Source of the DNA: Anaerolineae bacterium
GTDB lineage: Bacteria; Chloroflexota; Anaerolineae; B4-G1; SLSP01
Length of the DNA stretch: 64,000 nucleotides
NCBI GenBank assembly: GCA_049975525.1
Contig: JBNGCW010000006.1
Span: 68,702-132,701, forward strand
Direction: 5' to 3'
Part shown: positions 321-30,005 of the stretch, piece by piece
Layout of the letters: the number at the start of each line of letters is the position of its first letter
How positions within the stretch are numbered: position 1 is the first letter of the stretch
Notes under the pieces: model-generated
Database searches by the model: none
Seen by the model: the letters and a program-made list of their open reading frames with translations, nothing else
Told to the model about the DNA's origin: nothing
Position numbers and translations under genes: made by a program

Positions 321-3300
321 TTGAAGAGAAGTAAAAGATTCCATTGGTTTAATCTTGTAATTCTCGCGCTGGCGATAGCGCTGGCACTTGTCGCGGCTGC
401 GCCGCTCTGGGGACCGGGCATCGTCAACACGCGGGGCGGCGGCGACAGTCCCTTCCTCCTGCGGCGCACGCTAGAGATGGCGGAGAGCCTGCGCCACGGG
501 ATCTTCCCCGTCCGCTGGATGAGCCACGCAGCCTACGATCTGGGCTATCCGTTCTTCAACCACTACGCGGCGCTGCCCTACTACCTCAGCGGCGGGCTGA
601 CGGCGCTGGGTCTCTCGCCACCGGTCGCCATTCAGGCGACGCAGACGCTGGGCTTTATGCTGGCGGCGCTGACCATGCTGTTCTGGTTCCGGCGGCTTTT
701 CCAAAATCGCGTGGCGGCGCTGCTGGCGACGGCGGCCTATACCTTCGCGCCCTTTCACCTGGTCAACGTCTACGTGCGGGGCGATTCACTTTCCGAGTTC
801 TACGCTTTCGTCTGGTATCCGCTGATTCTGTGGGCGCTGGATCGGCTGGCAGCGCGCTTCACGACCCGGCGCGTGCTCGGCGCGGCGCTGGCTTACAGCG
901 CGCTGATCCTCACGCACAACGTCTCCGCTCTCATCTTCTCCCCCTTCGCCTTTCTCTATGCCCTTGTCGTGACCTGGGATCGAGCAAAGACGTCTCGCCG
1001 GCATCCGGCATCCGCCCTCGACTTTCACGTTTCACGCATCGTCCTTCCTTTTGCCCTCGGCATCTTGCTCAGCGCCTGGTTCTGGCTGCCCGCCATTGCG
1101 GAGATACGCTACGGGCAGATGGGGCCGGCGTTCACCGAGGGTTACTTCAACTACGAGAACCACTTTCGCAGCACGAACCTGGTGCAGCGCTCGTTGCGTT
1201 TCAATTATGAGATCGCGGGTCGCGTCGACGAGGCCGGGCCTTTCGCCATGGGGCTGGCGCAGGCGGGGCTGGCGCTGATAGGAAGTGTTCTTCTATCGTG
1301 GCGGGTTTTACGGCAGGCCAGAAGGCAGAGGTCAGGAGTCGAACGTAAATCCAAAATCCTCGCCCGTGAAGTCTACCTGTTGATCGGGCTTGCGCTGGCG
1401 ACGGTGATGATCACGCCCCTCTCGCGGCCGCTCTGGCGGTATCTTCCGTTGCTGGCGACGACACAGTTCCCCTGGCGCTTTCTCTCCGTCCAGGCGCTCT
1501 TCACCGCCGCCGTCAGCGGCGCGTTGGCAGACCGGAGTGGGGGCCGCCCGATCCACGTTTCAACGCTCATCGGCCTGCTTTGTACCGCCGCGCTCATTCT
1601 CTCCGCGCTGCTCTCCCTACACCCCGACCGCCTGCGCATCACGGCGGAGGACGTGACCTGGGACAACCTGCTGCTCTACGAGTCTTTCACCGGCAACATC
1701 GGCACGACCATCCGGCATGAGTATCTGCCGGCGGACGTGGTCCCGCGCCTTTACATCTCCGGGGCGGTGGTGGACGGTGTGAACAGCATGATGCCGAAGG
1801 TCGACGGTAACGCCCGGCTGCTCGCCACGCTGACGCGCCGCACGCCGGTGCAGCAGGTCTGGCGCGTGACGCTGGACCGCGCGGCGACGGTCGCCTTCCC
1901 GCTGCATTGGTGGCCCGGCTGGCAAGCGCGCATTGACGGCGAGCGCGCCGACGCCCGCCCGCTAACCGGCTCGGGGCGCCTGGCGGTGGACATGCCCGCC
2001 GGCCCGCACGTCGTGACGTTGCGCCTGCGGAATACGCCGCTGCGTACGGCCGCGTTGCTCGTCTCCGCCGCCACGCTGCTGGGCTGTGCCATCTGGCTGC
2101 TCTCCTCCGCTCCCGCTTTGTCATTTTATCCTTTGTCCTTTGTTATTTTATCCCTTGTCATTTCCATCATCCTATGTGCACTCTTTCAACAGCCCCCCAC
2201 CGCCGGGCCCGCGACGTTCTTCGACTTCGTCCAGATGCCCTATCCGCACCGGGGGCCGGTGGACTTCGGCGCGGCGCAGTTGACGACGGTGCGCGCGCCT
2301 GATACCGCTGTGCCCGGGGAGACGCTCAACATTGAGCTGGCATGGGCTGACGTGACGGCGCCGCTGACGGGCACGCTGCGCCTGGTCTCCCCGGCGACGC
2401 CGCGCCACAACGTCCCACTGACGCTGGCGGAGACGTCCTTCGCCGTGAAGGCGGTGCAGACGGCAAGGCTGGCGCTGCCGGGGGATCTGGCGCGCGGCCT
2501 CTATCTGCTGCAACTGCGCGTCCACGACGATGCCGAGGAGCGCTTTGGACAGACGGCGCAGGGGCGGGGGATGGGAGCGTTTTACATCGGGGCGGTGCGC
2601 GTGCCGGGAGGGCCGCCGCTGCCGGCGGACGCGCCGCAGGTCGCGGCGCTGGGCGACGGTGCGCTGACGCTGCACGCCGTCGAGGCCCACCAGGTGGACC
2701 CCCGCACGCTGGCTCTCGCCTTCACCTGGTCGACGAGGGGGACGCCGCGCAACTGGAGTCTTTCGCTGCGCCTGCGCGATGCGACGGGCCGGCAGCTGGT
2801 GCAGATGGATCTGCAGCCGGGCTACGGGTATCTGCCCACGACGCTCTGGACGCCCGGCGAGCAGGTGGTGGATCATCTGCGGATGCCGCTGCCGGAAGGG
2901 CTGGCGCCGGGCGCTTACACGCTTTCCGTGATCACTTATCTGCAGGCGACGATGCAGGAAGGCGGCGAGGTGGACGTGCCCGTTCGGCTGACGGATGCCA
3001 CGCGGCGGGAGCCGCCCGACACGGCGATCTGTGAGGCCGGTGGTCTGCGTCTCACCGAGGTGCGGCTACCCGACGCGGTAGACGAGGGTGAAGCGCTGAC
3101 GTTCGACGCGGTCTGGAGCGCGGTTGAGGTGCCGGAGGTGGCGCTGACGGCGCGCTGGGAGGTGTTGAACGGGCTGGGGAAGGTGGTCGCCTCGCAGGAG
3201 GGAGCGGTGGCGCCCGGATCAGAGACGTCGCTCTGGCCGAAACACGCCTGGGTGCGCGCGCCGGTGCGATTGGAGATGCCGCCGTCGTTGCCCCATTCCC

Positions 3301-3815
3301 CTTATCGTCTGCAGTTGACGTTGCTGGCGGAGGGGAAAGCCCCGGTGACCTGTTCTGTGGTCGAGGGGCTGCCCATCGTCGCCCGCGAGCGCGTCTTCGA
3401 GCCGCCCCCTTTGCCCTTCGCCCAGGAAGCGTTCTTTGGCGAGGTTTTGCGGCTTTTGGGATACGACCTTGTGTCCCAAAAAAATGAAATCCGCCTGACG
3501 CTTTGGTGGCAGGCTGTGCAGACTCCCGCTCGGGACTATAAGCGCTTTGTCCATCTCTACGATGTGGACAGTGGGGTTGTGTTGGCGCAGGACGATGCTA
3601 TGCCGCGCGATTGGACGTATCCCACCGGTGCCTGGGTCGCCGGGGAGGTGGTCAGTGAGACGGTGACGCTGACGACGGAGGGGATTCCGCCCGGCGAGTA
3701 TCGGCTGGGCGTGGGCTGGTACGAAGCAGAGACGGGTACCCGGCTGCCCGCTTTCGATAGTCAGGGTGAGCGGATTCCTGAAGATCGGGTGATGTTGGCA
3801 TGGGGTCCTTATTAA
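321..3815 (+). CDS. Large polytopic membrane protein, GT-C-fold-like putative glycosyltransferase. N-terminal multi-TM domain and about 800 aa of extracytoplasmic repeated beta-rich domains.
   Basis: 1164-aa ORF with a TTG start. The N-terminus holds many hydrophobic helices (MKRSKRFHWFNLVILALAIALALV..., FPVRWMSHAAYDLGYPFFNHYAALPYYL) typical of GT-C/PMT/ArnT-like transferases. The C-terminal part contains three related repeats (LTLAETSFAVKAV..., WSLSLRLRDATGRQLV..., LTLWWQAVQTPARDYKRF...). The exact family is not resolved. Confidence 0.7.
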   Translation: MKRSKRFHWFNLVILALAIALALVAAAPLWGPGIVNTRGGGDSPFLLRRTLEMAESLRHGIFPVRWMSHAAYDLGYPFFNHYAALPYYLSGGLTALGLSPPVAIQATQTLGFMLAALTMLFWFRRLFQNRVAALLATAAYTFAPFHLVNVYVRGDSLSEFYAFVWYPLILWALDRLAARFTTRRVLGAALAYSALILTHNVSALIFSPFAFLYALVVTWDRAKTSRRHPASALDFHVSRIVLPFALGILLSAWFWLPAIAEIRYGQMGPAFTEGYFNYENHFRSTNLVQRSLRFNYEIAGRVDEAGPFAMGLAQAGLALIGSVLLSWRVLRQARRQRSGVERKSKILAREVYLLIGLALATVMITPLSRPLWRYLPLLATTQFPWRFLSVQALFTAAVSGALADRSGGRPIHVSTLIGLLCTAALILSALLSLHPDRLRITAEDVTWDNLLLYESFTGNIGTTIRHEYLPADVVPRLYISGAVVDGVNSMMPKVDGNARLLATLTRRTPVQQVWRVTLDRAATVAFPLHWWPGWQARIDGERADARPLTGSGRLAVDMPAGPHVVTLRLRNTPLRTAALLVSAATLLGCAIWLLSSAPALSFYPLSFVILSLVISIILCALFQQPPTAGPATFFDFVQMPYPHRGPVDFGAAQLTTVRAPDTAVPGETLNIELAWADVTAPLTGTLRLVSPATPRHNVPLTLAETSFAVKAVQTARLALPGDLARGLYLLQLRVHDDAEERFGQTAQGRGMGAFYIGAVRVPGGPPLPADAPQVAALGDGALTLHAVEAHQVDPRTLALAFTWSTRGTPRNWSLSLRLRDATGRQLVQMDLQPGYGYLPTTLWTPGEQVVDHLRMPLPEGLAPGAYTLSVITYLQATMQEGGEVDVPVRLTDATRREPPDTAICEAGGLRLTEVRLPDAVDEGEALTFDAVWSAVEVPEVALTARWEVLNGLGKVVASQEGAVAPGSETSLWPKHAWVRAPVRLEMPPSLPHSPYRLQLTLLAEGKAPVTCSVVEGLPIVARERVFEPPPLPFAQEAFFGEVLRLLGYDLVSQKNEIRLTLWWQAVQTPARDYKRFVHLYDVDSGVVLAQDDAMPRDWTYPTGAWVAGEVVSETVTLTTEGIPPGEYRLGVGWYEAETGTRLPAFDSQGERIPEDRVMLAWGPY
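2101..2170 (+). repeat. AT-rich imperfect tandem repeat (TTTGTCATTTTATCC-like units) embedded in the high-GC ORF; it encodes a TM helix
   Basis: ctttgtcattttatcctttgtcctttgttattttatcccttgtcatttcc is read directly from the sequence and translates to ALSFYPLSFVILSLVISIIL. Confidence 0.5.
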
Positions 3816-3818
3816 GTG

Positions 3819-3846
3819 TTGTATCTTGTTTTAAATCCGTTATAAT
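3819..3846 (+). promoter_or_regulatory. Sigma70-like promoter (TTGTAT-N16-TATAAT) upstream of degV-like gene with a roughly 200-nt leader
   Basis: ttgtat (3819-3824), 16-nt spacer, tataat (3841-3846) in an AT-rich intergenic stretch right after the stop of the 321..3815 gene. Confidence 0.4.
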
Positions 3847-4049
3847 GAGCGATGTTTATTGCCGGCAGGTTGGAGGGTGCGTGATGTTGCTATTATTTTC
3901 CGTTGCTGTATTTTCCATGGCAGAGAATGTCAGTGGTGGCAAGGGGCTGTGGGGGCCGGGGGCTGTGGAGGGCCGGACCTGCAGCAGAACTCAACATCGA
4001 GGTTATCCCCTCCCCTGCGGTGTCGATTTATCTAGGCAAGGGAGGTATC

Positions 4050-4883
4050 ATGATTCACCTGGTGACGGATACGACGGCGTATTTGCCTGAGCAGTTGGAG
4101 AGGCGTTGGCAGATTCAGAAGGTACCGCTGAAAATTAACGTCGATTATGAGGCGGTGGACGAGGATAAAATCGCGCCGGAGGTTTTTTACCGACGGTTGG
4201 CCAGGGTGGAGACGGCACCCAGTACCAGTCAGCCGGCGCCGGGCGAGTTTATGACGCTTTACGAAGCGCTGACACGCAACGGTGATGAGGTGCTTTCGGT
4301 TCACATCTCTGAGGGGTTGAGCGGCACGCCGCTGGTGGCGCAGATGGCGGCCCGCGAGGTGGCACCGGATCGGATCACGGTGGTCGATTCCCAGGCGACG
4401 ACGTGCGCGCTGGCCCTGATGGTTGAGGCGGCTGCGCAGGCGTTGGCAAACGGCGCCTCGCGTGCCGAAGCCGCCGCCGTGGTTGAGGGTATTCGGGCAC
4501 GTTTCGGTAGTGCGTTTCTGGTGGAGGATCTGGAGTATCTGCGCAAGGGAGGGCGGATCAACGGCGCGGCCAAGTTTCTGGGCGCGATGCTCAACGTGCG
4601 GCCCATTCTCTATCTGAAGGAGGGGAAGATCGAGCCACTGGGCTTGGCCCGCACGCGCAAGCGGGGCCTCCGCCAGCTGGTGCAAGAGGTGCGGAAGCAG
4701 GTGGGCGAGGGGCCTGTCCGCGCGGCGGTGACGCACATCCAGTGCCCCGAGGAGGCCCAGGCGCTGGCGGAGCAGGCCCGTGCGCAGTTGAACTGTGTGG
4801 AGCTTTTTATCAATGAGACCGGGCCGGTGATCGGGTCGCACGTGGGGCCGGGCTTCATCGGATTGGCTGCGTATCCGGTATAG
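4050..4883 (+). CDS. DegV family (EDD-fold) fatty-acid-binding protein
   Basis: MIHLVTDTTAYLPEQ... has typical DegV N-terminal and internal motifs. RBS GGGAGGT lies 5 nt upstream of the ATG at 4050. The ORF-track start at 3903 lacks an RBS. Confidence 0.8.
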   Translation: MIHLVTDTTAYLPEQLERRWQIQKVPLKINVDYEAVDEDKIAPEVFYRRLARVETAPSTSQPAPGEFMTLYEALTRNGDEVLSVHISEGLSGTPLVAQMAAREVAPDRITVVDSQATTCALALMVEAAAQALANGASRAEAAAVVEGIRARFGSAFLVEDLEYLRKGGRINGAAKFLGAMLNVRPILYLKEGKIEPLGLARTRKRGLRQLVQEVRKQVGEGPVRAAVTHIQCPEEAQALAEQARAQLNCVELFINETGPVIGSHVGPGFIGLAAYPV

Positions 4884-4982
4884 GTGTCACCTTCCCGGAG
4901 GAGAGCCAACCTTCTTCCAAAGTGATAGGTGGCCGGTTTTCCCAGAAGGTTGGCTTTTAAGTTGCGAGTGCAAAGAGGTGTT

Positions 4983-5537
4983 ATGAGCGAGAATAACAGG
5001 CCGTTGGCGATTGTGTTCGGCAGTTCGCGGACGAAAGACAACGGGCATCTGAACGACGCGGAGTGCTTGGGTCGCTTGTTGGTCGAAGCGGGCTACGATG
5101 TGGGCAGCGGCGGTTACAGCGCTGTGATGGATCGCGTGAGCAAGGGTGCCCACGAGGCCGGAGGGTACGTCGTGGGCTACACGACGGACCAGTTTCCTGA
5201 CGCTGTGCCGTCGCGGTGGCTGACTGAGGAGCGTCGCACGCCCGACGTGCTGCTCCGCATCCGGCGTATGTTGCAGGAAGGCGATGCCTTTATCGCTCTT
5301 TGGGGTGGTATCGGCACGTTGACGGAGGTGGTCGTCACCTGGAGTATGGGGCAGGTACTGGCCGACACCGGTGGGCGCGTCAAGCCGCTGCTGTTGGTGG
5401 GTGCGCACTGGCCCCCGCTGGTCAGGTGTATCGGCGAGCAGACGGAGATCGGCGACGGGGTGCTGGCCTATCCGCAGCTCTGTGCTACGGTGGAAGAGGC
5501 CGTGGTCAGGTTGCGCGACCTTCGAGAAGAGGAGTAG
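4983..5537 (+). CDS. LOG family protein (TIGR00730 Rossmann-fold nucleotide-binding, cytokinin riboside 5'-monophosphate phosphoribohydrolase-like)
   Basis: MSENNRPLAIVFGSSR...GSGGYSAVMDRVSKGAHEAGGYVVGY...ALWGGIGTLTEV matches the LOG signature (PGGxGTxxE-like). The start is chosen at the internal ATG 4983. Confidence 0.75.
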   Translation: MSENNRPLAIVFGSSRTKDNGHLNDAECLGRLLVEAGYDVGSGGYSAVMDRVSKGAHEAGGYVVGYTTDQFPDAVPSRWLTEERRTPDVLLRIRRMLQEGDAFIALWGGIGTLTEVVVTWSMGQVLADTGGRVKPLLLVGAHWPPLVRCIGEQTEIGDGVLAYPQLCATVEEAVVRLRDLREEE

Positions 5538-5541
5538 CGCC

Positions 5542-6867
5542 ATGCCCAATGCGACGTATCACTTTCCGCCGGATTTCAAATGGGGCGTGGCGACGGCCTC
5601 GCATCAGGTCGAAGGGAACAACGAGAACAATCAATGGTGGGCCTGGGAGCAGCAGGAGGGGCGTATCAAGCAGGGACACACTTCGGGCCTGGCCTGCGAC
5701 TGGTGGGAGAACGCCGAGGCGGATTTTGATCGCGCCGCCGATATGGGTCTGAACGCGCTGCGGCTTTCTATCGAGTGGAGTCGGGTGGAGCCGGAGCCGG
5801 GGGCCTTCGACAACGCGGCGTTGGAGCGTTACCGTGAGATGCTCCAGGGGCTGCGAGCGCGTGGCATCGAGCCTATGGTGACGCTACATCATTTTTCCAA
5901 TCCGCTCTGGCTGGAGCAGCAGGGTGGTTGGGAGAACGTGGGCACCATCGCTTATTTCACCCGTTACGTGGAGCGAGTGGTGCGCGCGCTGAGCGAGGAG
6001 ACGCGGCTCTGGTGCACCGTCAACGAGCCCAATGTCTACGCCACCATGGGCTATCTCACAGGGCTCTTCCCGCCCGGCCAGCGAAGCCTCAAGGCCACGC
6101 GGACGGTGCTCCGTAACCTGCTCAGGGCGCACGGCGCAGCCTATCGCGCCATCCATCGCATCCAGCCGGCGGCGAAGGTGGGGCTGGCGCACAACCTGCG
6201 CATTTTCGACCCCGCCAATCCCCGCTCGCTCCTGGATGGGCTGGTGGCGCGCATTCAGGACCTGGGGTACAACCGGAGCACGCTCAGCGCGGTGTGGAAA
6301 GGGTGGTGGGCGCTGCCCATCGGCTTTGGACCGGCCTTCAAGTTGCGCCGCACGTTGGATTGGATCGGCTTAAATTACTACACGCGCGACCTGGTCGCTT
6401 TTGACAGCGGCGCCCATGAGATGCTCTTCGGGCGCGCCACGCACGCCGGCGACGCCGAGATGTTGGACGGCGGCTACGGCGAGCTCTATCCCGAAGGTAT
6501 GGCCCGCGCGCTGAGGCGCCTGGGAAAGCTGGGCCTCCCCATCTACGTCACCGAGAACGGCATTCCCGACAGCGACGACGACCAGCGTCCCCGCGCACTG
6601 CTGCTCCATCTGCATCAGATGTGGCGCGTCATGCAAGAGAATCTACCGCTGCAGGGTTACTATCACTGGACGCTGGTGGACAACTTCGAGTGGGCGGAGG
6701 GCTGGACGCTGCGCTTCGGCCTGATTGCCCTGGATCCGGAGACGCAGGAGCGCATGCGGCGGCCCAGCGCCGACCTCTACGCTGCGATTGCGCGGGGAGG
6801 CGCCATCACGCCGGAGCTGATCGACACTTACGCACCGGAAGCCCGTCCTCTGCTGTTGCCGGAGTGA
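5542..6867 (+). CDS. bglA: GH1 family beta-glucosidase
   Basis: MPNATYHFPPDFKWGVATASHQVEGNN...TVNEPN...ITENGIPD are classic GH1 motifs, including both catalytic Glu contexts (NEP, ENG). RBS GAGGAG sits upstream of the ATG at 5542. Confidence 0.88.
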   Translation: MPNATYHFPPDFKWGVATASHQVEGNNENNQWWAWEQQEGRIKQGHTSGLACDWWENAEADFDRAADMGLNALRLSIEWSRVEPEPGAFDNAALERYREMLQGLRARGIEPMVTLHHFSNPLWLEQQGGWENVGTIAYFTRYVERVVRALSEETRLWCTVNEPNVYATMGYLTGLFPPGQRSLKATRTVLRNLLRAHGAAYRAIHRIQPAAKVGLAHNLRIFDPANPRSLLDGLVARIQDLGYNRSTLSAVWKGWWALPIGFGPAFKLRRTLDWIGLNYYTRDLVAFDSGAHEMLFGRATHAGDAEMLDGGYGELYPEGMARALRRLGKLGLPIYVTENGIPDSDDDQRPRALLLHLHQMWRVMQENLPLQGYYHWTLVDNFEWAEGWTLRFGLIALDPETQERMRRPSADLYAAIARGGAITPELIDTYAPEARPLLLPE

Positions 6868-6873
6868 CGCCAG

Positions 6874-7935
6874 ATGAAGACATCGGCCCTTGACTACGAC
6901 CTGCCTGAAGAGCTGATCGCGCAGGTGGGCGTGGAGCCGCGCGACGCCTCGCGCCTGCTGGTTATCTACCGCGAGACGGGCGAACTGGAGCACCGTATCT
7001 TCCGCGAGATCGGCGACTATCTGCGTCCCGGTGATCTGCTCGTCGCCAACGAGAGCCGCGTGATCCCCGCGCGCCTCTTCGCCCGCAAAGTCCCCACCGG
7101 GGGCAGAGTGGAGATCCTGCTGTTGCGTCGGATTGAGGAGGGACGCTGGCGCGGGCTGATGGGCGGCGCGCGGACGCGTGTCGGCACCCGTGTGCGCCTC
7201 TTCAAGGGGGACGAGCCCACGGAGATCGAAGCCGAGGTAGTCGAAGTGGGCGGGCGCGGCGAGCGCGTGCTGGCCTTCTCCGAGCCGTTGGCGCCGCATC
7301 TGGACGACCTGGGTGCAGTTCCCCTGCCGCCGTACATCCATGAAGAGCTGAAGGATCCGGAGCGCTACCAGACGGTCTACGCGCAGACGCCGGGCAGCGC
7401 CGCCGCGCCGACGGCGGGCCTGCACTTTACACCGGCGTTGATGCTGGAGCTGCGCGAAGCCGGCGTCAAGTTCGCCTTCGTCACGCTCCACGTGGGATTG
7501 GACACCTTCCGCCCTATCGAAGAGGAGACCGTCGAGGGGCATGAGATTCACAGCGAGTGGGCGCGTCTCTCGCCCCACGTCGCCGAGCAGATCAACCAGA
7601 CCAAGGTGAGGGGTGGACGCGTCATCGCCGTGGGGACGACGAGCATGCGTGTGCTGGAGACGGCGGCGCGCAGCGGGCTTTTTCAATCGGAGACGGAGAG
7701 CTGTCCCTGGCGCGCCGTCGCGCCCTACGAGGGCTTCACCGACCTCTATATCACGCCGGGTTTTGAGTTTCGCGTGGTGGACGCGCTGATCACCAACTTC
7801 CACCTGCCCCGCAGTTCACTGCTGGCGTTGGTGATGGCCTTCGCGGGGGTGGATCTCGTCCGCAAAGCCTACGTGACGGCGATAGAAAAACGCTATCGCT
7901 TCTACTCGCTGGGCGACGCCTGTTTGTTCCTCTGA
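6874..7935 (+). CDS. queA: S-adenosylmethionine:tRNA ribosyltransferase-isomerase (queuosine biosynthesis)
   Basis: MKTSALDYDLPEELIAQ...RDASRLLV...VANESRVIPARL...[15 protein letters not shown] is QueA signature sequence throughout. Confidence 0.9.
   Translation: MKTSALDYDLPEELIAQVGVEPRDASRLLVIYRETGELEHRIFREIGDYLRPGDLLVANESRVIPARLFARKVPTGGRVEILLLRRIEEGRWRGLMGGARTRVGTRVRLFKGDEPTEIEAEVVEVGGRGERVLAFSEPLAPHLDDLGAVPLPPYIHEELKDPERYQTVYAQTPGSAAAPTAGLHFTPALMLELREAGVKFAFVTLHVGLDTFRPIEEETVEGHEIHSEWARLSPHVAEQINQTKVRGGRVIAVGTTSMRVLETAARSGLFQSETESCPWRAVAPYEGFTDLYITPGFEFRVVDALITNFHLPRSSLLALVMAFAGVDLVRKAYVTAIEKRYRFYSLGDACLFL
7776..7935 (+). repeat. Direct repeat copy 1 (3' end of queA); it is duplicated at 9695..9854
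   Basis: About 160 bp with about 96% identity to 9695..9854, read directly from the sequence. Confidence 0.85.
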
Positions 7936-7990
7936 GGCGCTTATCCAGTATCCGGCAACCGGATTTCGTCCCTTACTTCTCTCCTATTGC

Positions 7991-8018
7991 TTGACCCCCG
8001 ATCATTGGGGTAAAATAT
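7991..8018 (+). promoter_or_regulatory. Promoter-like element (TTGACC ... TAAAAT) in the AT-rich region upstream of the cassette gene
   Basis: ttgacc at 7991-7996, taaaat at 8011-8016 (short 14-nt spacer; alternative -10 candidates nearby). Strong RBS AGGAG at 8047-8051. Confidence 0.3.
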
Positions 8019-8059
8019 AGGTTAGAACATAATCGGGCGCACAATAAGGAGTCAGGAGC

Positions 8060-9655
8060 ATGCAAGAAAACATATGGATACGGTTTACTGCTGTGGTGCT
8101 TCTACTGGGCATCATGGTGATTGCCTTGTTCATTGCTACGTCTGTATGGAGCCGACCGCTGTCCGCATCCGCGTGGCACGTTGCCCCTCCGCTGAAGGGG
8201 CCGGTGGATCATCGGCCGGCGCCGGTTATCGTTACGCCCCAGGCTCAGCTGCAGTCCGGCGGCTTGAAAGCCATCGCCATCGTAGGTGAGGTCGGAGATG
8301 TCACTCAGCTTTACAAAGACGACATGCAGTACGCGGTAGACGCACTGGAGGATCATGGCGTTACGGTTTATAAGTTTTTCTACGGCGATAGCGCTTTCAC
8401 TTGGAGCGATATTGTCGCAGCAGCCAATGGCGCACATTTTCTCCTCTACATGGGGCACGGCGTTTACTGGGGCGACTCGTGCGTCAATCCAACGGAGGTC
8501 GGTGGTTTCTATCTAGGTAGCGAGTTCGTCTCTCCGGATCAGATCCGCAATGATCTTGGCGGAAAATTAGCCGAGGACAGCGTGGCAATTCTCAGCCACG
8601 CTTGCTTTTCGGCAGGCGATTCAGCCTGCGATCCCGAGGGCACATTGACGCAAGTGGAGGCCGAGCGCCGGGTGCGGATGTACGCTGCGCCCTTTGTGGA
8701 TATCGGCATGGAGGCTTATTACGCCAACAACAACTATTATTCTGCCAGCAATATTGTCAACCAGCTGTTAACGGATCCCAGCCAACGAAAGAGCGTGGGG
8801 GAGATTTTCAAGAGCATCTCCCCCTTCAGCGCCGGCGAGTTCCGCGATCTGACCTATCCCGACAGCGGCTATGATCTGTGGCTGAGTGGGAGCACAGGTC
8901 ACTGGAGCGATGCCTTTGTCGGTATGCCCGGCTATGTCTTCGCCGGTGATCTTACGACGCCCCCAGAATTGGGTGGGTTGCCGGAGACGTTGGCTTTTGC
9001 GTTCAATCAAGCCACCAGCGTTCTTTCACCCGACTCTTACACTGTGACCCCCGAAAACGTCGGCAATAGCGATCCCCTCACCTGGACCATCACTACCGGC
9101 TGTGCCTGGCTCGACTTTTCGCCGGAAACGGCGACGACACCGGAACCGTTTGGGGTGATGCCCAATCAGGCTGCGATTGCGGCATTGCCCGAAGGCCAGC
9201 ACACCGGCACGTTCACCGTGACAGTCACCGACCCGGCGGAGACGCTCAACGCCGTCCAGCGGGTCGAGGTGACGCTGGATATCGTGAGGCCACGGCTGGG
9301 AAACCTTCCGGCGGAGCTCAATTTCACCTATCTTATTTCTGACGCGCTGATGCTGCCGCGCTCCCACGTCGTGACACCGCGCAACGTCGGCTCGGAAGAT
9401 GTGTTGACGTGGGATCTTGAGCAGGCGGGCACCTGGTTCGAGACGTCGGTCACCAGCGGCACGACGCCCGGCGTCTTCACCATCACGCCCATCAGCTACT
9501 CCACGACCCAGTCGATGAGCTATACGGGCTGTGTTACCGTGACGGCGACGGCGCCGATAGGGACGGACGACGCCGTCCAGCGCATCGATCTCACCCTGCA
9601 GGTCCGGGTGGCCGAAGCGGCGCGTGTATTCTTGCCCCTGGTGACCCGAAACTGA
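8060..9655 (+). CDS. Membrane-anchored secreted protein with a putative clan-CD (legumain/gingipain/caspase-like) cysteine peptidase domain and two tandem C-terminal beta-sandwich-like repeats
   Basis: N-terminal TM ([24 protein letters not shown]). KAIAIVGE strand, then FLLYMGHG (His) and, 49 aa later, [14 protein letters not shown] (Cys). The spacing and context match the clan CD His-Cys dyad. Two repeats follow ([17 protein letters not shown]... and [17 protein letters not shown]...). The region is AT-richer than its surroundings. Confidence 0.5.
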
Positions 9656-9694
9656 GGATTGGGCCTCTCCGCAGCATAAAGCAACGTGCGGGGC

Positions 9695-9854
9695 GGTGGA
9701 CGCGCTGATCACCAACTTCCACCTGCCCCGCAGTTCACTGCTGGCGCTGGTGATGGCCTTCGCGGGGGTGGCTCTCGTTCGCAAAGCCTATGCGACGGCG
9801 ATAGAAAAACGCTATCGCTTCTACTCGCTGGGCGACGCCTGTTTGTTCCTCTGA
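9695..9854 (+). pseudogene. Duplicated 3' fragment of queA (direct repeat copy 2); a gene remnant with no start
   Basis: It would encode ...[52 protein letters not shown], near-identical to the QueA C-terminus, with a few substitutions and no upstream start. Confidence 0.8.
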
Positions 9855-9887
9855 TAGGTCAACGGCAAACCGCCGGCGGATGCATCC

Positions 9888-10238
9888 TCACAGGAAGGCC
9901 GAAAGCAGCAAGAAGGCCGCTTCGACGCCCAATGTTTCCGCGAACAGTTTCCAGGACGCGGGCTCCCCGACGTGGCCGTAATGGTACTCTCCCCCACCGA
10001 TGACCACCGCTACGGCGATCAGGCCCAGGAAGAGGGTCAGGAGCTGGCGTATGGCGACGCCCATCTGATAGACTTCGCCGTAGAAGCCATAACTGCCCCA
10101 GAAAGCGGCGTAGATTTTGAGGACGATGTCCAGCACGGTGGGAATGAGCACAACGGCCAACGCCGAGGTCAGTCCCCAGAGGACGAGCGCGCCGACCATG
10201 TTCAGCGGTTCTGCTTGTGCGTTGTGGGTCTCGGTCAT
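9888..10238 (-). CDS. Small 3-TM membrane protein with the conserved GGGEYHYGHVGE motif; paralog of the anti-sigma C-terminal domain
   Basis: 116 aa and hydrophobic. The C-terminal half aligns with residues about 150-254 of the 12410..13174 anti-sigma protein (IGGGE[YH]HY[GR]HVGE..SW[KR]LF..TL..E..L.LS..L). Confidence 0.65.
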   Translation of the reverse strand: MTETHNAQAEPLNMVGALVLWGLTSALAVVLIPTVLDIVLKIYAAFWGSYGFYGEVYQMGVAIRQLLTLFLGLIAVAVVIGGGEYHYGHVGEPASWKLFAETLGVEAAFLLLSAFL

Positions 10239-10257
10239 CTCGGATACCTTTCTCTAA

Positions 10258-12363
10258 TCAGGGCGTGTCATCTGCCGGGTTGCACTGCAGCGGCAGCCAC
10301 GTGGGCACGCCCCTGATCTCGCTGCCGATGAGGCCCAGGTACGGTGTAGGCACCAGCAGGCCGGTCTTTTGCAGATCGTAGGGCAGCGGCGTGTCGCGTT
10401 CGTCGGCGCGGTTGACCAGGGCGGCGGGGAAGGTGCCGTCGGCGCGTGCCGGGGTGATGGCGAAGTGCACGTGTACCCAGAGCGGCCCTTGCCACCAACG
10501 TCCTTGATAGCCCAGCAGCTCGCCTGCTTCCACGGGCACGTTCTCGACGCCCGGCGGGAAGGCCTCGGCGACGAAGGACTGCCGGTTGGCGCTATCGGCC
10601 ATCCCGCCGTAGAAGGTCCACACCTTTTTTCCGGGGTGCAGCGGGTCGTTGTGCTGGATGGCGACGGCGTCATTCCACGTTTCGCGCCGGGTGAGCAGGC
10701 CGTCGGCCACAGCGTAGACGGGCACGCTGTTCTGATGGCCGAGCCCCATGAAGCCCAGGGCTTTGTTGTACCACCACATGCCCAGCTGGCTTGCCGACGG
10801 CAGACGCCAGGGCGCGTCGGGACAGCGGTTGCCTTCCGGCGGCGGGTTCTCCAGGGTGCTGCGCGGCTGGAAGACCAGGGTGTTGGCTTTGAAAGAGGTG
10901 GGCGCATAGGCCGTCACGAGGGCGTTGAGCATCTCCGGCGTCCAGCGCTCCAGATAGACCGGATAGCCCATGAAGTGATGGAGGAAGATGTAGGGGAAGG
11001 CGCCGGCGCGGATCTCCTCGACCAGCGGACGCTGATCCCAGAGCCCGGCCTGCGCCAATTGTGTCATCTCGAAGGGTTGGAGGTAGAGCGGGCGTCCCTC
11101 GAGCGTCAGCAGCCCGGCGTATTCGTCCGCCAGGATGGGGCCCTCGGCGTGATCGATGAGCCAGGTGAGGTCTTTGTAGTTCGCCAGGGGGCCGACGCGC
11201 TGTTTGAGGTCCTCGATGGGGTTTTGCAGCGTCTCACGGATCAGCATCCCGGCCTGCACGGCCAACACCAGCAGGATCGCAGCGTGGAGGTAGGCCCGCC
11301 AGCCGTTTTTGCTTGCCCGTCGTACACCGTCGGCGTGCCCCCGGTTGCCGATGTCGCTCCAGGCGATGAGGCTGCCGGCGGCCAGGCTGAGCGCGGCGGA
11401 GAGCTCCAGCAGGTAGTTGACGTTGGAGCCGATTTTGCCGACGGTGGCCGCGGAGAGCGTCGCGCCGAGGAGATAGGGCGTCAGTAGGGGCCAAAGTTGG
11501 ATCTGACCGGGGAGCAGGAAAAGGAATGCTCCCGCGCCGATGAGCAGCACGGGGGCCAGACTGCTCAGCTCTCGGGCGTAGCGGATCACGGTCTCCCATT
11601 GGAAGGGGTTGACGTTGGCGGTGACGATATTGAAGAAGAAACCGCCGTCGGTGAGCAGTTGCAAGATCAGGAAGAGCAGGAGGCCCGCTCCGGCGACGAG
11701 GCTTGCCAGTTTAAACGCCACGCGCCGTCCGCACCGATGCCACAGCCAGACGAAGGCCGCCAGCGGCGCGGCGAGACCGTAGGATTGGCGGGTGTAGATC
11801 GCACCCAGCAGCAGGAGGGCGGGGATAAGCACGGCGTTGTGTTCCTCGTCAAGACGCGAGACGGCGTAGAGCGCAGCGACGCTCAGCGCCAGTGCCAGCA
11901 TATCGACCCGCGCCAGCGCCGACCAGCCGACGACGTAGCGGAGAGCCAAGAAGAATCCGGCGGCGACCAGCGCAGCTGTGCGGTTTTGTGTCTGCACGTG
12001 CAGGATGAGACCCAGCAGCCCTGCCGTCGCCATGGTGCAGAGCACGGAGATCAAGCGTCCCGGTAGAAATGAAGGGCCGAAGAGGCCTACGAAAGGCGTC
12101 ATCAGCAGCGGGTAGAGCGGGGGGTAGTTGGAGATGGTGTAGGGGGGCTTGGAGAGATCGCGCCGGTAGATGTTTTCCCCCTGTGCCAGCCGCTGCGCCT
12201 GATCGACCAGCGGCGCTTCACCGTAGTCCAGAGGGTAGCGGTGCGCCAGCGCGATGACGCTGTGCGTAAGGAAGATCAGCGCCGCCAGTGCCAGCAAGAC
12301 GAACAGCGTGAGCCGCAAGCCGTGTTCTACGTAGGGTCCCAGATGGGAGAAGAATCGCTTCAT
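10258..12363 (-). CDS. Fusion protein: N-terminal GT-C/GT39-like (ArnT/PMT-type) membrane glycosyltransferase domain plus a C-terminal M23/LytM-like peptidase domain
   Basis: About 13 TM helices in the first 400 aa with GT39-like loops. The C-terminus reads ...SVPVYAVADGLL...AVAIQHNDPLHPGKKVWTFYGGMA...GELLGYQGRWWQGPLWVHVHFAI, resembling the M23 core (G.PV.A...G.V / V.I.H / GPHLHFE). The HxxxD Zn motif is not clear, so the domain may be degenerate. Confidence 0.6.
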   Translation of the reverse strand: MKRFFSHLGPYVEHGLRLTLFVLLALAALIFLTHSVIALAHRYPLDYGEAPLVDQAQRLAQGENIYRRDLSKPPYTISNYPPLYPLLMTPFVGLFGPSFLPGRLISVLCTMATAGLLGLILHVQTQNRTAALVAAGFFLALRYVVGWSALARVDMLALALSVAALYAVSRLDEEHNAVLIPALLLLGAIYTRQSYGLAAPLAAFVWLWHRCGRRVAFKLASLVAGAGLLLFLILQLLTDGGFFFNIVTANVNPFQWETVIRYARELSSLAPVLLIGAGAFLFLLPGQIQLWPLLTPYLLGATLSAATVGKIGSNVNYLLELSAALSLAAGSLIAWSDIGNRGHADGVRRASKNGWRAYLHAAILLVLAVQAGMLIRETLQNPIEDLKQRVGPLANYKDLTWLIDHAEGPILADEYAGLLTLEGRPLYLQPFEMTQLAQAGLWDQRPLVEEIRAGAFPYIFLHHFMGYPVYLERWTPEMLNALVTAYAPTSFKANTLVFQPRSTLENPPPEGNRCPDAPWRLPSASQLGMWWYNKALGFMGLGHQNSVPVYAVADGLLTRRETWNDAVAIQHNDPLHPGKKVWTFYGGMADSANRQSFVAEAFPPGVENVPVEAGELLGYQGRWWQGPLWVHVHFAITPARADGTFPAALVNRADERDTPLPYDLQKTGLLVPTPYLGLIGSEIRGVPTWLPLQCNPADDTP

Positions 12364-12409: not shown

Positions 12410-13174
12410 TCACAGGAACAATGCCAGGCTCAAGATCAACAGCTCGCCGACGAGGGTCCAGCCGAAGAGGCGCCACGAACGACGTTCCCCAACGTGTCGA
12501 TAGTGGTGTTCCCCTCCACCGATGACCAGGGTGATCCAGCCCAGGGACAGGAAGAAGACGCCCCAGTTGCCCAGCGCGACGGCCGGCCAGGGATCTTGCC
12601 AGAGGCGCGCGTAGACGCGGAAGAAGAGCTCCCGCAGCAAGTAGATTTCGTAAAGGGCCACCACGGCAGTGCCCAGCCAGAGCGTCACGGCCAACGCCGT
12701 GGTGAGTGTGCGGCGCGGTTGCAGCAGGCGGGGATGTTGCCCCCAGCTCATCACCGGGACGAGGAAGAGGATGCAGGCCAGGGTGGGGAACGCCATCGTC
12801 CGCCCCGGCTTGGCGGCGATGAAAGCGGGCTCGACCTGCTGCACGAGGCCTAACAGCGCCGCCAGCAGCCCGATGAGGGCCGCGCCCACGGGCAGAAAGT
12901 CCACGACACGGCGGCGGTGCAGCTGCCGTTGGGGCGCGCGTCCCATGCGTGTCCGGACCGCGGCGAAGGTCATCTCTGCCGGCGGTTTGACGTCGTCAAG
13001 CGCGGTGCGCAGTTCGCGCCGCAGCCGCCGTTGGGTCTCCTCGTGGACGGTCAGCGCGGTACGGCAGGCGGGACAGGCGACCAGGTGTCGGTCCATGTGC
13101 TCCCGTTCCGCATCGGTCAGCGTCTGATGCACGTATCCGATCAGCTCATCTTGGGTGAGGTGTTGCTTCATCGC
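12410..13174 (-). CDS. Anti-sigma factor (zf-HC2 type) with a C-terminal tri-TM GGGEHHYRHVGE domain
   Basis: The start is at MKQHLTQDELIGYVHQTLTDAEREHMDRHLVACPACRTAL (H-x3-C-x2-C zinc finger), overlapping the sigma factor stop as ATGA. A TM segment and a membrane domain paralogous to 9888..10238 follow. Confidence 0.75.
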   Translation of the reverse strand, partial: AMKQHLTQDELIGYVHQTLTDAEREHMDRHLVACPACRTALTVHEETQRRLRRELRTALDDVKPPAEMTFAAVRTRMGRAPQRQLHRRRVVDFLPVGAALIGLLAALLGLVQQVEPAFIAAKPGRTMAFPTLACILFLVPVMSWGQHPRLLQPRRTLTTALAVTLWLGTAVVALYEIYLLRELFFRVYARLWQDPWPAVALGNWGVFFLSLGWITLVIGGGEHHYRHVGERRSWRLFGWTLVGELLILSLALFL

Positions 13175-13752
13175 AGTTCCTCTTCTTTCATCTGATGATA
13201 CAGGGCCGTCGGCGCGAGGCGTGTGCGCAGCTGCTTGTAGGCCAGTCGCACCCGCGACTGAGCGGTCCGCACCGGGCAATTCATGATGTCGGCGATTTCG
13301 CGGTAGGTGTGCCCGGCCCAGTAGCGCAGCACTACCGCCTCGCGCAGTGGTGGACTCAGGGCTTGAAGCGCGTCCCAGACTTCGCGGCGCGTCTCTTGCG
13401 CGAGGGCGCGGTGCTCCGGCCCGGGGCGGCCGGCGCGGGGCTCGTGGCCTCGATCCAGCCAGCGGGTCAACGAGATGACAGGCGCACGCCGTCGGCGATG
13501 GCGATCGCGGCTACGACTCACGGTGATGGTGTGCAGCCACGTCGAGAAGGTAGCGCGCGTGGGGTCGAAGCGGTGGATGTTGGTCAGCGCGTAGGTCAGC
13601 GCGTCCTGCGTCGCTTCCTCTGCATCCTCGGCGTTGCCCAGCAGGCTATAGGCCAGGCGGTAAGTCGAAGCGCGGAATCGCTCGTAAAGCGCCTTCGCGG
13701 CCCGCTCGTCGCCTGTCTGCCAACGTTCAATCCACCGCTCGATCTCGGTCAT
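13168..13752 (-). CDS. ECF-type RNA polymerase sigma-70 family factor
   Basis: Regions 2 and 4 are recognisable (ATQDALTYALTNIHRFDP...FSTWLHTI; LREAVVLRYWAGHTYREIADIMNCPVRTAQSRVRLAYKQLR). It is translationally coupled to the downstream anti-sigma gene. Confidence 0.85.
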   Translation of the reverse strand: MTEIERWIERWQTGDERAAKALYERFRASTYRLAYSLLGNAEDAEEATQDALTYALTNIHRFDPTRATFSTWLHTITVSRSRDRHRRRRAPVISLTRWLDRGHEPRAGRPGPEHRALAQETRREVWDALQALSPPLREAVVLRYWAGHTYREIADIMNCPVRTAQSRVRLAYKQLRTRLAPTALYHQMKEEELR

Positions 13753-23600: not shown

Positions 23601-23720
23601 ATAGATGACGTAAGCGTTTGCGGTGTCAAGAATTGCTTGGTTGATCTGCAATACTTCTTTCTCACGTCCTACCAACTCAGGCGTGGCACGAACGCTCTCA
23701 TAGGTCTCGCGGTATGTCAT
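20604..23720 (-). CDS. STAND-type (AAA_16-like) P-loop NTPase with long C-terminal TPR repeat region (1038 aa)
   Basis: ELVGREKEVLQINQAILD...YVIYITGPGGIGKTRL (Walker A) and VVLVLDTVEKL (Walker B). The C-terminal half has multiple TPR-like repeats (LGYLRRVQGQFIAASEAYQDAL..., LTNLAYALALSGEFEVARHQ...). The region is about 50% GC versus about 67% in the flanks. RBS GGAGGG is upstream. Confidence 0.8.
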   Translation of the reverse strand: MTYRETYESVRATPELVGREKEVLQINQAILDTANAYVIYITGPGGIGKTRLVQHVLEHVPQLEIKPLVASDIIDLYHTSARTAAGLMERIQAVLPTEFERYQEKRRELRERYTRGEPIPSAERQALQKAFFADLKNLTDQQRVVLVLDTVEKLFQQEDLAAADLHITEEQPDVLKWLLNTFLPQVQNVVLILSGRPYQPDLATTLKARLSERQEILPLKLSGLKEKAARAYFDAVIAAAQDSDNPHDRRTAEAIQHLGQERRRAIFHCLHDGGDPPTIPPIWLALAIDHLVIDGRPLEAFGSTLDEARQYSTHRREEIRDELGRRLVQALRENRRPGDEVIIALGWLRKGGPPALLARVADLTLEEVEDALEQIRDLSFVKRRPEDDWLFLHDEMYDLLFQHALKDIADKERERVYREIRAYYKQRIQEAREAIAGLYPALEKELPDTLKVAEARAYLEDALVEDLHYRLRWNPSAGFQTYFLYAEEAIATHDENLDMQLRAELLTFVAEQDPSGKQEIIADGLRRADLEADAAIRWVKRYVERQNLDEAWRIVQMLRDGGRDLVADGGVLAEAELNTWEALVRIYRGDSEQNDLERAGDILLTANKQLKEYDVPASQFIRWSALLARNYNNLGYLRRVQGQFIAASEAYQDALPHWRLTKLEAEQANTLTNLAYALALSGEFEVARHQVKDALNLRKKLGTRLPLALTYNTRAAVEVQAGRYREAEPYAARSLEISQTLNFKRGIGLSLLTLSRLHRFLSEDPETPARERPRLLQQSLEEAKEALKHFKDGEPERRMVALYEQGLTHRQLILSEEDHALEHAKAAIQNLEASRKIAIEENLWQKYLDASLGLAWTYYYLQREQPERAAEQEWEDTETFLEILGEETRRNFGDYFLTKERKPEINDDTLIDIFSQLGRLHVLRGVMAMDSFDAGTKEAPYPNLCTAIREFVLAMEYNELVGKEYQGIRRALNTIHRRLKGLNVQEMVAAFNTIRDMAREWATIAEENRLWRELENTFGSYEHYTMLASRQLGNVSLT

Positions 23721-23735
23721 GATTTCCCTCCACTC

Positions 23736-24914: not shown

Positions 24915-24965
24915 CTCGATTCTCCCTTCCATACAAAGCGGCGAGCGAACGCGGTTGGCGGCGTC

Positions 24966-26189: not shown

Positions 26190-26413
26190 CTAAGCGGTTT
26201 GATCATACGTTCACTAGGCCATCTGACTATATCAAAACTCGCTTCTAAGGTGTGCAAATGCAACGGGCAAACCCCACAGCTTGAGGACTACCTCAATCAG
26301 GTTAACAAACATTATATGTCAAACACAAGAAGATACTTTTATCATAACGGGTATTTGCTCACTGCTATGCCACAATTCTCTAACTTAGATGTCACGTATA
26401 TCTCACGACAATC

Positions 26414-29793: not shown

Positions 29794-30005
29794 CGTCTCC
29801 TCCGCAAGGGGTAATGGGGACATCTTTATCTTACTACAACTCCACGCAAAGCACAACTTTCCCCGTGAGATTGCTGTGAGATTCGGGTGGGAGAAGAGTA
29901 TGCCCACCAACAGGAAGCGGTTGGGTAGCTGTATGCGGGTCGCGGCCTAAAGATGCTTTAATAAGATCAGATTACTTCTCAGACCCACCAATGAAGGAGG
30001 CAGCC

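Follow-up and report, generated by a model that had tools for sequence, protein, structure and literature searches.

A duplicated queA 3' end at a synteny breakpoint beside a native gene for a predicted clan-CD peptidase-like protein in Anaerolineae

Background

A textbook analogue of elements that replace the 3' end of a protein-coding gene is SCCmec at rlmH, while the join points of tandem duplications, and duplications that were remodelled afterwards, are the subject of a bacterial literature of the kind associated with the Roth laboratory. Duplicated segments around an insert have also been produced in E. coli, where a single crossover of circularised DNA with a truncated homologous segment yields duplications of 109-950 bp that flank the insert (PMC3240628). 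Here we analyse a window of 64,000 nucleotides (the whole stretch under study) from an Anaerolineae bacterium, in which the 3' end of queA recurs in direct orientation beyond a single downstream gene, here termed CAS. A preliminary description of this DNA had proposed that a foreign, AT-richer cassette was inserted at the queA 3' end. Based on comparisons with related genomes, the second copy is best read as the scar of one lineage-specific recombination event at a chromosome rearrangement breakpoint.

The repeat pair and its surroundings

The features of the locus, in order along the window, are as follows:

6874-7935, plus strand: queA, intact, coding for tRNA preQ1(34) S-adenosylmethionine ribosyltransferase-isomerase (353 aa; full-length match to Pfam Queuosine_synth, E=8.8e-124)
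7776-7935, plus strand: repeat copy 1, the functional queA 3' end (residues 302-353 and TGA), with the ancestral spacer next to it
7936-8059, plus strand: native queA-CAS spacer with promoter-like block and Shine-Dalgarno sequence (SD), from alignment with L005, L087, L006 and L108
8060-9655, plus strand: CAS, a 531-aa membrane-anchored, predicted clan-CD cysteine-peptidase-like protein with two C-terminal BACON-like beta-sandwich domains
9656-9692, plus strand: native CAS 3' tail, ending in a truncated left hairpin arm (AACGTGCGGG, 9683-9692), 35/37 identical to L005
9693-9694, no strand: two orphan nucleotides (GC) at an illegitimate junction, no microhomology
9695-9854, plus strand: repeat copy 2, a displaced or duplicated queA 3' end on the synteny breakpoint, with a 52-aa remnant ORF (9696-9854)
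9855-9887, no strand: 33 nt from copy 2 to the sm116 stop, with two 10-nt palindromes (GGATGCATCC, CCGCCGGCGG)
9888-12363, minus strand: start of the right-hand non-syntenic block, with sm116 (9888-10238) and a PMT_2 family-39 glycosyltransferase (10258-12363)

The two copies (7776-7935 and 9695-9854) align over 160 nt with 155 identical positions (96.9%) and no gaps, which bears out the roughly 160-bp, 96% duplication first described, as well as its topology, in which the 3' end of a gene is directly duplicated around about 1.76 kb and the gene itself is left intact. Copy 1 is the last 160 nt of queA, TGA included, and this pair is the sole repeat of at least 40 nt at such identity within the 64-kb window. 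The left edge is sharp at GGTGGACGCG, 4 nt 5' of a conserved queA coding motif; the right edge is the stop codon of queA, and the dinucleotide TA 3' of the stop is common to copy 2 and the relative L005. For the identity to run out precisely with the stop codon, or 2 nt further on, is a coincidence of about 0.2-2% under any non-programmed model. The window QueA is identical to an NCBI protein from a metagenome-assembled genome (P0209) that is named QueA; exact-protein look-ups returned no record for either QueA or the 52-aa remnant, and an Rfam search of 6500-10500 gave no non-coding RNA match. Copy 2 contains a 52-aa ORF starting with GTG (9696-9854) that is reported by gene callers and whose match to the Queuosine_synth model is confined to its final 50 positions. 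Copy 2 is hence a remnant, as had been noted, although not an ORF-less one.

The five differences between the copies comprise three synonymous changes (7828/9747, in a Leu codon; 7860/9779; 7872/9791) and the replacements D327A (7853/9772) and V334A (7874/9793), with no indels. All five are confined to 47 nt (Monte Carlo P=0.024), a segment in which the queA genes of relatives vary as well, and by polarity two are derived in the functional copy 1 and three in the remnant copy 2. This pattern, which comprises only five sites, hints that two functional alleles were involved.

CAS is a long-standing native neighbour of queA

At least six related Anaerolineae genomes have a CAS ortholog as the gene directly 3' of queA. 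The order GH1-queA-CAS is shared by L005, L006, L087/L088, L108 and L013, and by L107 for the N-domain, and the repeat is absent from L005, L006, L087, L108, L013 and L107. What is orthologous and syntenic in these relatives comprises CAS, the 5' spacer with its promoter and SD, and the 37 nt of 3' tail, with blastn collinearity extending through the queA-CAS spacer into CAS. The preliminary description was correct that a promoter-like element and a strong SD precede a single gene at 8060-9655: the promoter-like block (about 7975-8027; CCTATTGCTTGAC...GGTAAAATA..GGTTAGAA) and the SD (AGGAGTC, 8047-8053) are strongly conserved in five relatives, while a simple consensus scan called neither. Despite these conserved blocks, the coding sequence just past the SD is only 46-72% identical to that of relatives. 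The dip in GC is likewise real (0.49 in the spacer and 0.556 in the 5' half of CAS, against 0.659 in queA), but it does not mark a foreign segment, as the orthologous gene and spacer of L005 and L006 show an equal dip. Given this synteny and the dip common to the orthologs, CAS is no foreign cassette; together with its promoter spacer it is a long-standing native neighbour of queA.

Structure prediction gives CAS the caspase-hemoglobinase fold of clan CD, and a candidate catalytic dyad of H133 (in LLYMGHG) and C182, each following a hydrophobic strand as is typical of the clan, is at least 90% conserved over 45 homologs. The predicted structure identifies CAS as a putative clan-CD cysteine peptidase of the gingipain/caspase-fold type, anchored in the membrane and carrying a pair of BACON-like domains. 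What sets it apart from gingipains and other clan-CD peptidases is that no Pfam peptidase family matches it at the sequence level, its peptidase nature being predicted from the fold, and that it has a membrane anchor at its N-terminus as well as the BACON-like (PF19190-type) domains. The locus brings to notice a family of predicted caspase-fold peptidases in Anaerolineae that are surface-anchored, evolve fast and lack annotation.

The breakpoint downstream of CAS

In blastn comparisons the window loses its homology to L005 and L087 at 9692, which falls inside the left arm of a bidirectional terminator hairpin between CAS and a convergent PDZ gene. This hairpin is intact in L005, L006 and L087, and the relatives' version has a 14-bp stem with a dG of -19 to -20 kcal/mol and z of -5.7 to -6.7, compared to a z of -0.09 at the window junction. 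The orphan GC at 9693-9694 matches neither the relatives' hairpin (AA) nor queA 7774-7775 (GT). The PDZ-PLD-PTP-DUF87 block that follows in relatives is absent from the whole 64 kb; core genes, among them coaX and ppk, make up the DNA rightward of copy 2. The homology of L105/L106 to this right block spans only 12382 to 9887, and in those genomes the two-gene module of sm116 and PMT_2 occupies a different context.

A deletion within one neighborhood was rejected, since the downstream genes of L087 are not in the window; the two ECF sigma factors are only 26% identical and are thus not orthologs. As tblastx comparisons proved too noisy in this GC-rich DNA, targeted tblastn was used instead. A multi-piece templated junction was also rejected, as the 33 nt at 9855-9887 have no source elsewhere in the window; nor was a source found in the fetched loci. 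Should the PDZ-PLD-PTP-DUF87 block be found bordered by CTTCCCGGACGTT and joined to the former sm116 flank, a reciprocal inversion or translocation would be indicated, and a single intrachromosomal event would be favoured.

The event belongs to a common class of genome scar, the partial gene duplication at a rearrangement junction, and the region 3' of queA emerges as a recombination hot spot in this Anaerolineae clade. The case carries a caution, namely that an integrated cassette can be mimicked by a directly repeated gene end in combination with a GC dip and a private promoter; only synteny with relatives reveals which flank is ancestral. Given the two 160-nt repeats, RecA-mediated homologous recombination between the copies would delete CAS precisely and leave queA intact and unharmed.

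Possible origins of the duplication

On the best reading, the single event of which copy 2 is the scar broke the chromosome in the hairpin after CAS and brought a different core-gene block (sm116, PMT2 and onward) to that place. As its route we tentatively favour, at somewhat less than even probability, a homologous insertion-duplication in which a close relative supplied the queA3'-CAS fragment, over an intrachromosomal duplication and deletion. Under this proposal the ancestor would have had queA abutting the sm116 block after the CAS region was lost or moved by an earlier rearrangement. A donor fragment from a closely related CAS-carrying strain, reaching from the queA-internal position 7776 to the hairpin break at 9692-9694, may then have been circularised or illegitimately joined, and could have recombined via the 160-nt queA 3' homology by a Campbell-type single crossover or by homology-facilitated illegitimate recombination (HFIR). 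This would rebuild a complete queA followed by CAS and displace the resident queA 3' end to a position downstream of CAS, where it would form copy 2, a route for which no integrase would be required. We infer the order of events, the queA-sm116 intermediate and the donor.

Several observations are as expected for insertion-duplication. The duplicated segment corresponds to the homology between insert and target, in direct orientation and with the target gene regenerated, and the far junction (9692|GC|9695) is illegitimate, with two orphan nucleotides and no microhomology. Furthermore, the CAS_mid, CAS_C and tail segments are closer to L005 (85.5%, 90.1% and 94.6% identity) than GH1 and queA (85%), and the locus is mosaic in every lineage, CAS being hypervariable between lineages, which points to import up to the junction. 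Among about 40 Chloroflexota queA loci, none has sm116 right behind queA, and the protein collection lacks such an arrangement too. A gapped DNA scan (queA anchor, N160, sm116-side anchor) retrieved 0 metagenome contigs, a weak negative as the collection lacks this organism's samples; a 20-mer from the 33-nt spacer matched 15 metagenome loci, all by chance, and did not retrieve the known JGI contigs, which indicates that their samples are missing from the collection. Insertion-duplication takes two events: a rearrangement first, and the re-insertion afterwards.

An origin within the chromosome, which we consider possible but rather doubtful, could have followed one of two routes. In the first, replication would have stalled at the hairpin and switched template back to 7776, so that 7776-9694 (1919 bp) became duplicated in tandem, and a later deletion or rearrangement would have removed the second spacer, CAS, PDZ and what followed up to the sm116 block. 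In the second, one illegitimate rearrangement would have captured or copied 160 nt of "filler" from 1.8 kb upstream at its junction. A stable hairpin is a classic site for replication stalling and template switching, and the junction lies in a very stable one, without microhomology and with its two orphan nucleotides; moreover, 9694 is joined to the equivalent of 7776, so that the end of a unit meets the start of a unit. Copy 2 lies in direct orientation only 1.76 kb from its source, and neither a second genome nor the unobserved queA-sm116 intermediate is required, with the second route further having the merit of a single event. Against this, the second unit does not continue like the first, as identity stops at the stop codon and the spacer and CAS are unrepeated; a retained piece ending at the queA stop would be a matter of chance (about 0.2%). 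Tandem duplications of 1.9 kb are also unstable, and the second route has no microhomology to guide its two template switches. In addition, a copy 2 that was never functional should have changed faster and at random, whereas the observed changes, three versus two, lie in the variable segment and are mostly synonymous, which argues weakly against this origin.

We regard it as improbable that copy 2 is a relic att "mimic" of a lost integrative element, such as a serine-recombinase phage, most of which would later have been deleted with adjacent host DNA. Elements of this type bring a queA 3' end with them, by which the gene is restored when they integrate. The boundaries, from 4 nt before the conserved motif to the stop codon, fit the anatomy of an att mimic, the viral queA 3' fragments from Firmicutes (L112, L122) begin 0-50 nt upstream of the equivalent motif and adjoin large serine recombinases, and the break within a palindrome might represent a pseudo-att site. 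However, a Pfam search of 30 large ORFs across the 64-kb window detected no recombinase or transposase, core genes such as coaX and ppk lie to the right of copy 2, and the viral contigs lack Chloroflexota-like queA or CAS. Such an origin would also need integration at a secondary site 1.76 kb from the intact primary site, and an att-like remnant is present in 0 of about 40 related queA loci. A phage-database protein search found mostly whole queA genes in prophage-derived records, and the literature yielded nothing relevant on queA as an integration or serine-recombinase site.

It is more improbable still that the hypervariable peptidase gene behind queA in Anaerolineae is swapped as a cassette through recombination directed at the conserved queA motif, with a recombinase acting in trans or none at all and with the window holding the only un-decayed attR-like copy; if true, this would be a Chloroflexota counterpart of the Abi_2 islet of L122 beside the serine-recombinase prophages at Firmicute queA. 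An integron-type cassette was rejected, as the repeats consist of queA coding sequence, the gene is preceded by a conserved promoter of its own and an integrase is lacking.

The initial reading, in which CAS is a foreign single-gene cassette or decayed islet inserted site-specifically at the queA 3' end, is very unlikely to be correct. Direct repeats of the target gene's 3' end (160 nt, 96.9%) do flank one gene with its own promoter, and L122 provides a true example of such a topology. Yet the relatives that lack the repeat hold CAS, its promoter spacer and its tail as orthologous, syntenic sequence at the same site, so that the cargo is not missing there; compositional or phylogenetic foreignness is likewise not seen, given that L005 and L006 share the GC dip and that no viral-contig relatives of the window-lineage QueA or CAS were found. 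Furthermore, the logic of att sites puts the ancestral flank after the distal copy, whereas the ancestral spacer and CAS adjoin the proximal copy and the distal copy adjoins the non-syntenic block, which argues against integrative insertion. The 64-kb window has no tRNA genes and, as the preliminary description had said of integrases, no recombinase; that description had also offered a different recombination mechanism as an alternative. The comparison of related queA loci that it had recommended went largely against the insertion: relatives carry the gene, and there is no empty site among them, in one metagenome scan or in the QueA 90% protein cluster, which has a single member.

Finally, the least credible explanation is an assembly artefact, in which two strains were chimerically joined where they have queA 3' sequence in common. 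The source is a metagenome-assembled genome, and the short-read contigs L003, L004 and L086 are indeed interrupted within the repeat. However, the junction of CAS tail and queA 3' end cannot result from a path through the assembly graph of two normal alleles, and it recurs in independent JGI assemblies (two samples) and in Logan contigs from at least two runs. L002 (JGI 3300005882) is 100% identical to 7793-9981 and contains both copies with 5/5 diagnostic mismatches, both junctions are covered by L001 (JGI 3300005101) and the Logan contigs L003, L004 and L086, and the arrangement is real and fixed in all sampled populations.

Comparison with known systems

The L122/L123 pair is a genuine integrative counterpart in Firmicute prophage contigs. 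The Abi_2 islet of L122 is enclosed by a full queA on one side and a second copy of the queA 3' end on the other, with a 151-nt repeat of 93% identity, a GC of 0.46 against 0.63 in queA and a recombinase adjacent to it, and the sibling L123 has the empty site. As in the window, the repeats of these queA large-serine-recombinase prophages (L122/L123/L112) are the queA 3' end with a start at the same conserved motif, and in L122 a single gene separates the full queA from the second 3' copy. However, L122 combines an adjacent recombinase, cargo of foreign composition and an empty site in a sibling; all three are missing from the window, where the ancestral flank makes up the "cargo".

The join points of tandem duplications resemble the window in the connection of unit end to unit start without homology, at a hairpin, in direct orientation and near the source; they differ in that the window keeps 160 nt of the second unit, which end at the stop, and is non-syntenic beyond. 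Relative to the Campbell-type and HFIR events of E. coli conjugation recombinants (PMC3240628), the window event is natural and reconstructed from one genome, its insert is native to the locus in relatives and not heterologous, and the recipient arrangement is deduced. In both, an anchor of 100-1000 bp is directly duplicated around a kb-sized insert, the target gene is regenerated with no need of a site-specific recombinase, and little if any homology underlies the illegitimate far junction.

A second 3' end of queA

The final 160 nt of queA recur downstream with 155 bases identical and no gaps, confirming the 3'-end duplication reported in the preliminary description, and no other long repeat is present in the 64-kb window. 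The features concerned are:

6874-7935: queA (Pfam Queuosine_synth, 8.8e-124)
7776-7935: copy 1, the 3' end of queA
8060-9655: CAS, the gene between the copies
9695-9854: copy 2, the second queA 3' end
9855-9887: 33-nt spacer
9888-10238, minus strand: sm116, a 116-aa membrane protein
12410-13279, minus strand: zf-HC2 anti-sigma-like protein, two genes from sm116

Identity between the copies sets in sharply at GGTGGACGCG (7776/9695) and ends with the TGA stop (7935/9854); copy 2 amounts to a 52-aa remnant, with the QueA model match limited to its last 50 positions. Their five differences (7828, 7853, 7860, 7872 and 7874) are confined to 47 nt (P=0.024 in a simulation) and comprise three synonymous changes and two replacements (D327A and V334A); polarization with outgroups assigns two derived states to the functional copy and three to the remnant. 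Of the 120 queA loci tested, a second queA 3' copy occurs solely in the window and in L122, a viral contig from IMG/VR.

The gene between the copies

A search with QueA, taking one genome per species, recovered Anaerolineae MAGs with QueA 68-87% identical. A CAS homolog lies directly 3' of queA, with the same GH1 gene before queA, in the loci L005, L006 and L013, and a partial homolog is found in L009; all four lack a second queA 3' copy. The closest homolog (P0002, 69%) occupies the same position in L087/L088, as does another in L108, while L107 has a gene with an N-domain 70% identical to that of CAS. L005 DNA is collinear with the window from w1116 through queA and the entire spacer up to w8063, and the collinearity of L087 extends to w8951. 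The promoter and strong SD previously credited to this gene as its own are indeed there, but the promoter-like block and SD are conserved in five of five relatives, despite an identity of just 46-72% over the initial 300 coding nt, and so this is the native promoter of the clade rather than one private to a cassette. Similarly, GC does dip, from 0.659 in queA to 0.49 in the spacer and 0.556 in the 5' half of CAS, but this is no sign of foreignness: the orthologs dip too (in L005, CAS 0.58 against queA 0.66, with the spacer at 0.41; L006 is similar), and the dip reflects the gene itself.

CAS has no sequence match in Pfam or PDB, and its 88 homologs (P0001-P0088), many with PF19190 (BACON_2), come nearly all from Anaerolineae/Chloroflexota. 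H133 (in LLYMGHG), H180 and C182 are nearly invariant (at least 90% conserved in an alignment of 45 homologs), and the AlphaFold model (pLDDT 90) displays an N-terminal transmembrane helix, an alpha/beta domain (~70-290) and two beta-sandwich domains. We predict that these proteins are membrane-anchored, peptidase-like members of clan CD (gingipain/caspase fold) with BACON-like domains; the family is unannotated in Chloroflexota, and its putative catalytic domain has no Pfam model. Three homologs (P0012, P0047 and P0085) are S8 peptidase fusions, and in L107 a PPC domain replaces the C-terminal domains.

CAS is far more diverged than its neighbors (49-69% against 86-93% amino acid identity), with its promoter conserved, and is mosaic between lineages: its 5' part resembles L087/L107 (78-80%), and its middle, 3' part and tail resemble L005 (85.5%, 90.1% and 94.6%, with housekeeping flanks at ~85%), the excess identity of the C-terminal part to L005 relative to GH1 having a z of ~2.7. 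Throughout the clade, the region that follows queA is a hot spot of recombination. In L107 an acquired HU-HIG gene (7372-8067) lies between queA and the CAS-like gene, 33 nt past the queA stop and with no queA remnant at the insertion; this family is frequently found with mobile elements, and its presence here is a further sign of an insertion-prone region. Elsewhere, L087 has a PIN/MazE toxin-antitoxin pair (1184-1887) inserted between a PMT_2 (family-39 glycosyltransferase) gene and a 1207-aa ORF; this pair is absent from the counterpart at 183-362 of the window.

The junction at copy 2

In L087, L005 and L006 alike, the genes run big ORF-DegV-LOG-GH1-queA-CAS, followed by a convergent PDZ-PLD-h106-PTP-DUF87 set, none of which occurs anywhere in the window. 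Past the CAS stop, these relatives have a conserved tail and then a hairpin with a 14-bp stem (AACGTCCGGGAAG-loop-CTTCCCGGACGTT); its stability is very high (-19 to -20 kcal/mol, z -5.7 to -6.7), and it evidently serves both CAS and PDZ as a bidirectional terminator. In the window the tail is still present, matching L005 at 35/37 positions, but the hairpin is cut down to the initial 10 nt of its left arm; two orphan bases (GC) and then copy 2 follow, with no fold signal at the junction (z -0.09). In the nucleotide alignment this truncation explains why blastn homology to the window stops at w9692 for both L005 and L087, and copy 2 sits on a synteny breakpoint.

The 33 nt to its right consist mostly of two perfect 10-nt palindromes, GGATGCATCC and CCGCCGGCGG, and no source for them was detected in the window or any fetched locus. 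Next come sm116 and a family-39 glycosyltransferase gene, which in L105/L106 make up a two-gene module with other surroundings; homology there stops exactly at the sm116 stop (w9887), and the module adjoins an 818-828-aa S8 peptidase. sm116 is itself paralogous (~37% identity) to the membrane portion at the C terminus of the zf-HC2 anti-sigma-like protein, with which it shares the motif GGGE(Y/H)HY(G/R)HVGE. Farther right are ordinary or core genes (ECF sigma/anti-sigma, glycerol-3-phosphate dehydrogenase, ABC transporters, coaX, ppk and alpha-2-macroglobulin), and the window has no integrase or transposase among its large ORFs and no tRNA gene. A minus-strand run of large STAND-type ATPase genes at 20604-29910 (AAA_16/NACHT-like with TPR; AAA_16; a Trans_reg_C-containing protein), which also holds ORFs of 407 and 705 aa with no Pfam matches, may represent a cluster for defence or signalling.

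Origin of the arrangement

By att logic, queA, the spacer and CAS constitute an uninterrupted ancestral locus, and copy 2 an extra queA end with non-queA DNA on both sides, which excludes a simple integration of a cassette into queA. Irrespective of route, we consider it highly probable that this is a one-off recombination scar beside a native gene, a known and ordinary kind of event. As to the route, we tentatively favor homologous insertion-duplication, in which a close relative would have contributed a queA3'-CAS fragment with one end at the hairpin break, and this fragment would then have recombined via queA 3' homology with a chromosome having queA abutting the sm116 block. Such a process yields exactly the observed topology and has been shown experimentally, with duplications of 109-950 bp (PMC3240628). 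The differences between the copies, being mostly synonymous and in a naturally variable part, are as expected if both had diverged as functional alleles, and the closer match to L005 in the 3' half and tail of CAS suggests that imported DNA extends as far as the junction. The weakness of homologous insertion-duplication is that two events are needed, and its queA-sm116 intermediate was not observed in the queA loci examined. Somewhat unlikely, despite its parsimony in actors, is an intrachromosomal origin, whether by a hairpin-stalled template switch giving a 1919-bp tandem duplication and then a deletion, or by a rearrangement in one step that took in a 160-nt filler: the end of the retained piece must fall on the stop codon by chance, and faster, random decay of copy 2 is predicted. 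It is improbable that copy 2 is a relic att mimic of a lost integrative element; this would account for both boundaries (the conserved motif at the start and the stop at the end), but it comes without a recombinase, element DNA or a precedent in this phylum and requires integration at a secondary site although an intact primary site lies 1.76 kb away. The foreign integrative cassette of the preliminary description is very improbable given that CAS is native in the relatives, although the topology it described and its alternative of another recombination mechanism both stand. An assembly artefact is hardly credible: L002, which comes from a different JGI sample, matches 7793-9981 at 100% identity with both copies and 5/5 diagnostic bases, both junctions are covered by L001 and the Logan contigs L003, L004 and L086, and a CAS-tail/queA junction is not obtainable by mis-joining two normal alleles.

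Comparison with prophages at queA

A degenerate DNA pattern for the repeat-start motif matched 41 IMG/VR contigs of distant taxa, with QueA 44-58% identical. Among these, Firmicute prophages have a 150-200-nt queA 3' mimic beside the integrase, and in L112 (9690-11716) a true queA 3' fragment adjoins a large serine recombinase. The most telling contig is:

L122 (IMGVR_UViG_3300021254_003384), 2259-6534: SpoIID, full queA, Abi_2, 151-nt queA 3' repeat (93% identical), large serine recombinase, phage genes

Here the islet is one low-GC Abi_2 (abortive-infection) gene between the full queA and the repeat (GC 0.46 against 0.63 for queA). In its sibling L123, with a 95% identical host flank, the recombinase directly follows queA with no islet, and L123 is thus an empty site as regards the islet. 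In the Firmicute contigs L122, L123, L111 and L112, the queA 3' end thus serves large-serine-recombinase phages as an attachment region; the literature searched yielded no description of queA as a target of serine integrases. Follow-up may be merited both for this phage target with its defence-gene islet and for the unannotated, hypervariable clan-CD peptidase family. On every point where the window falls short of an integrative case, L122 displays the signature that had been envisaged for the window.
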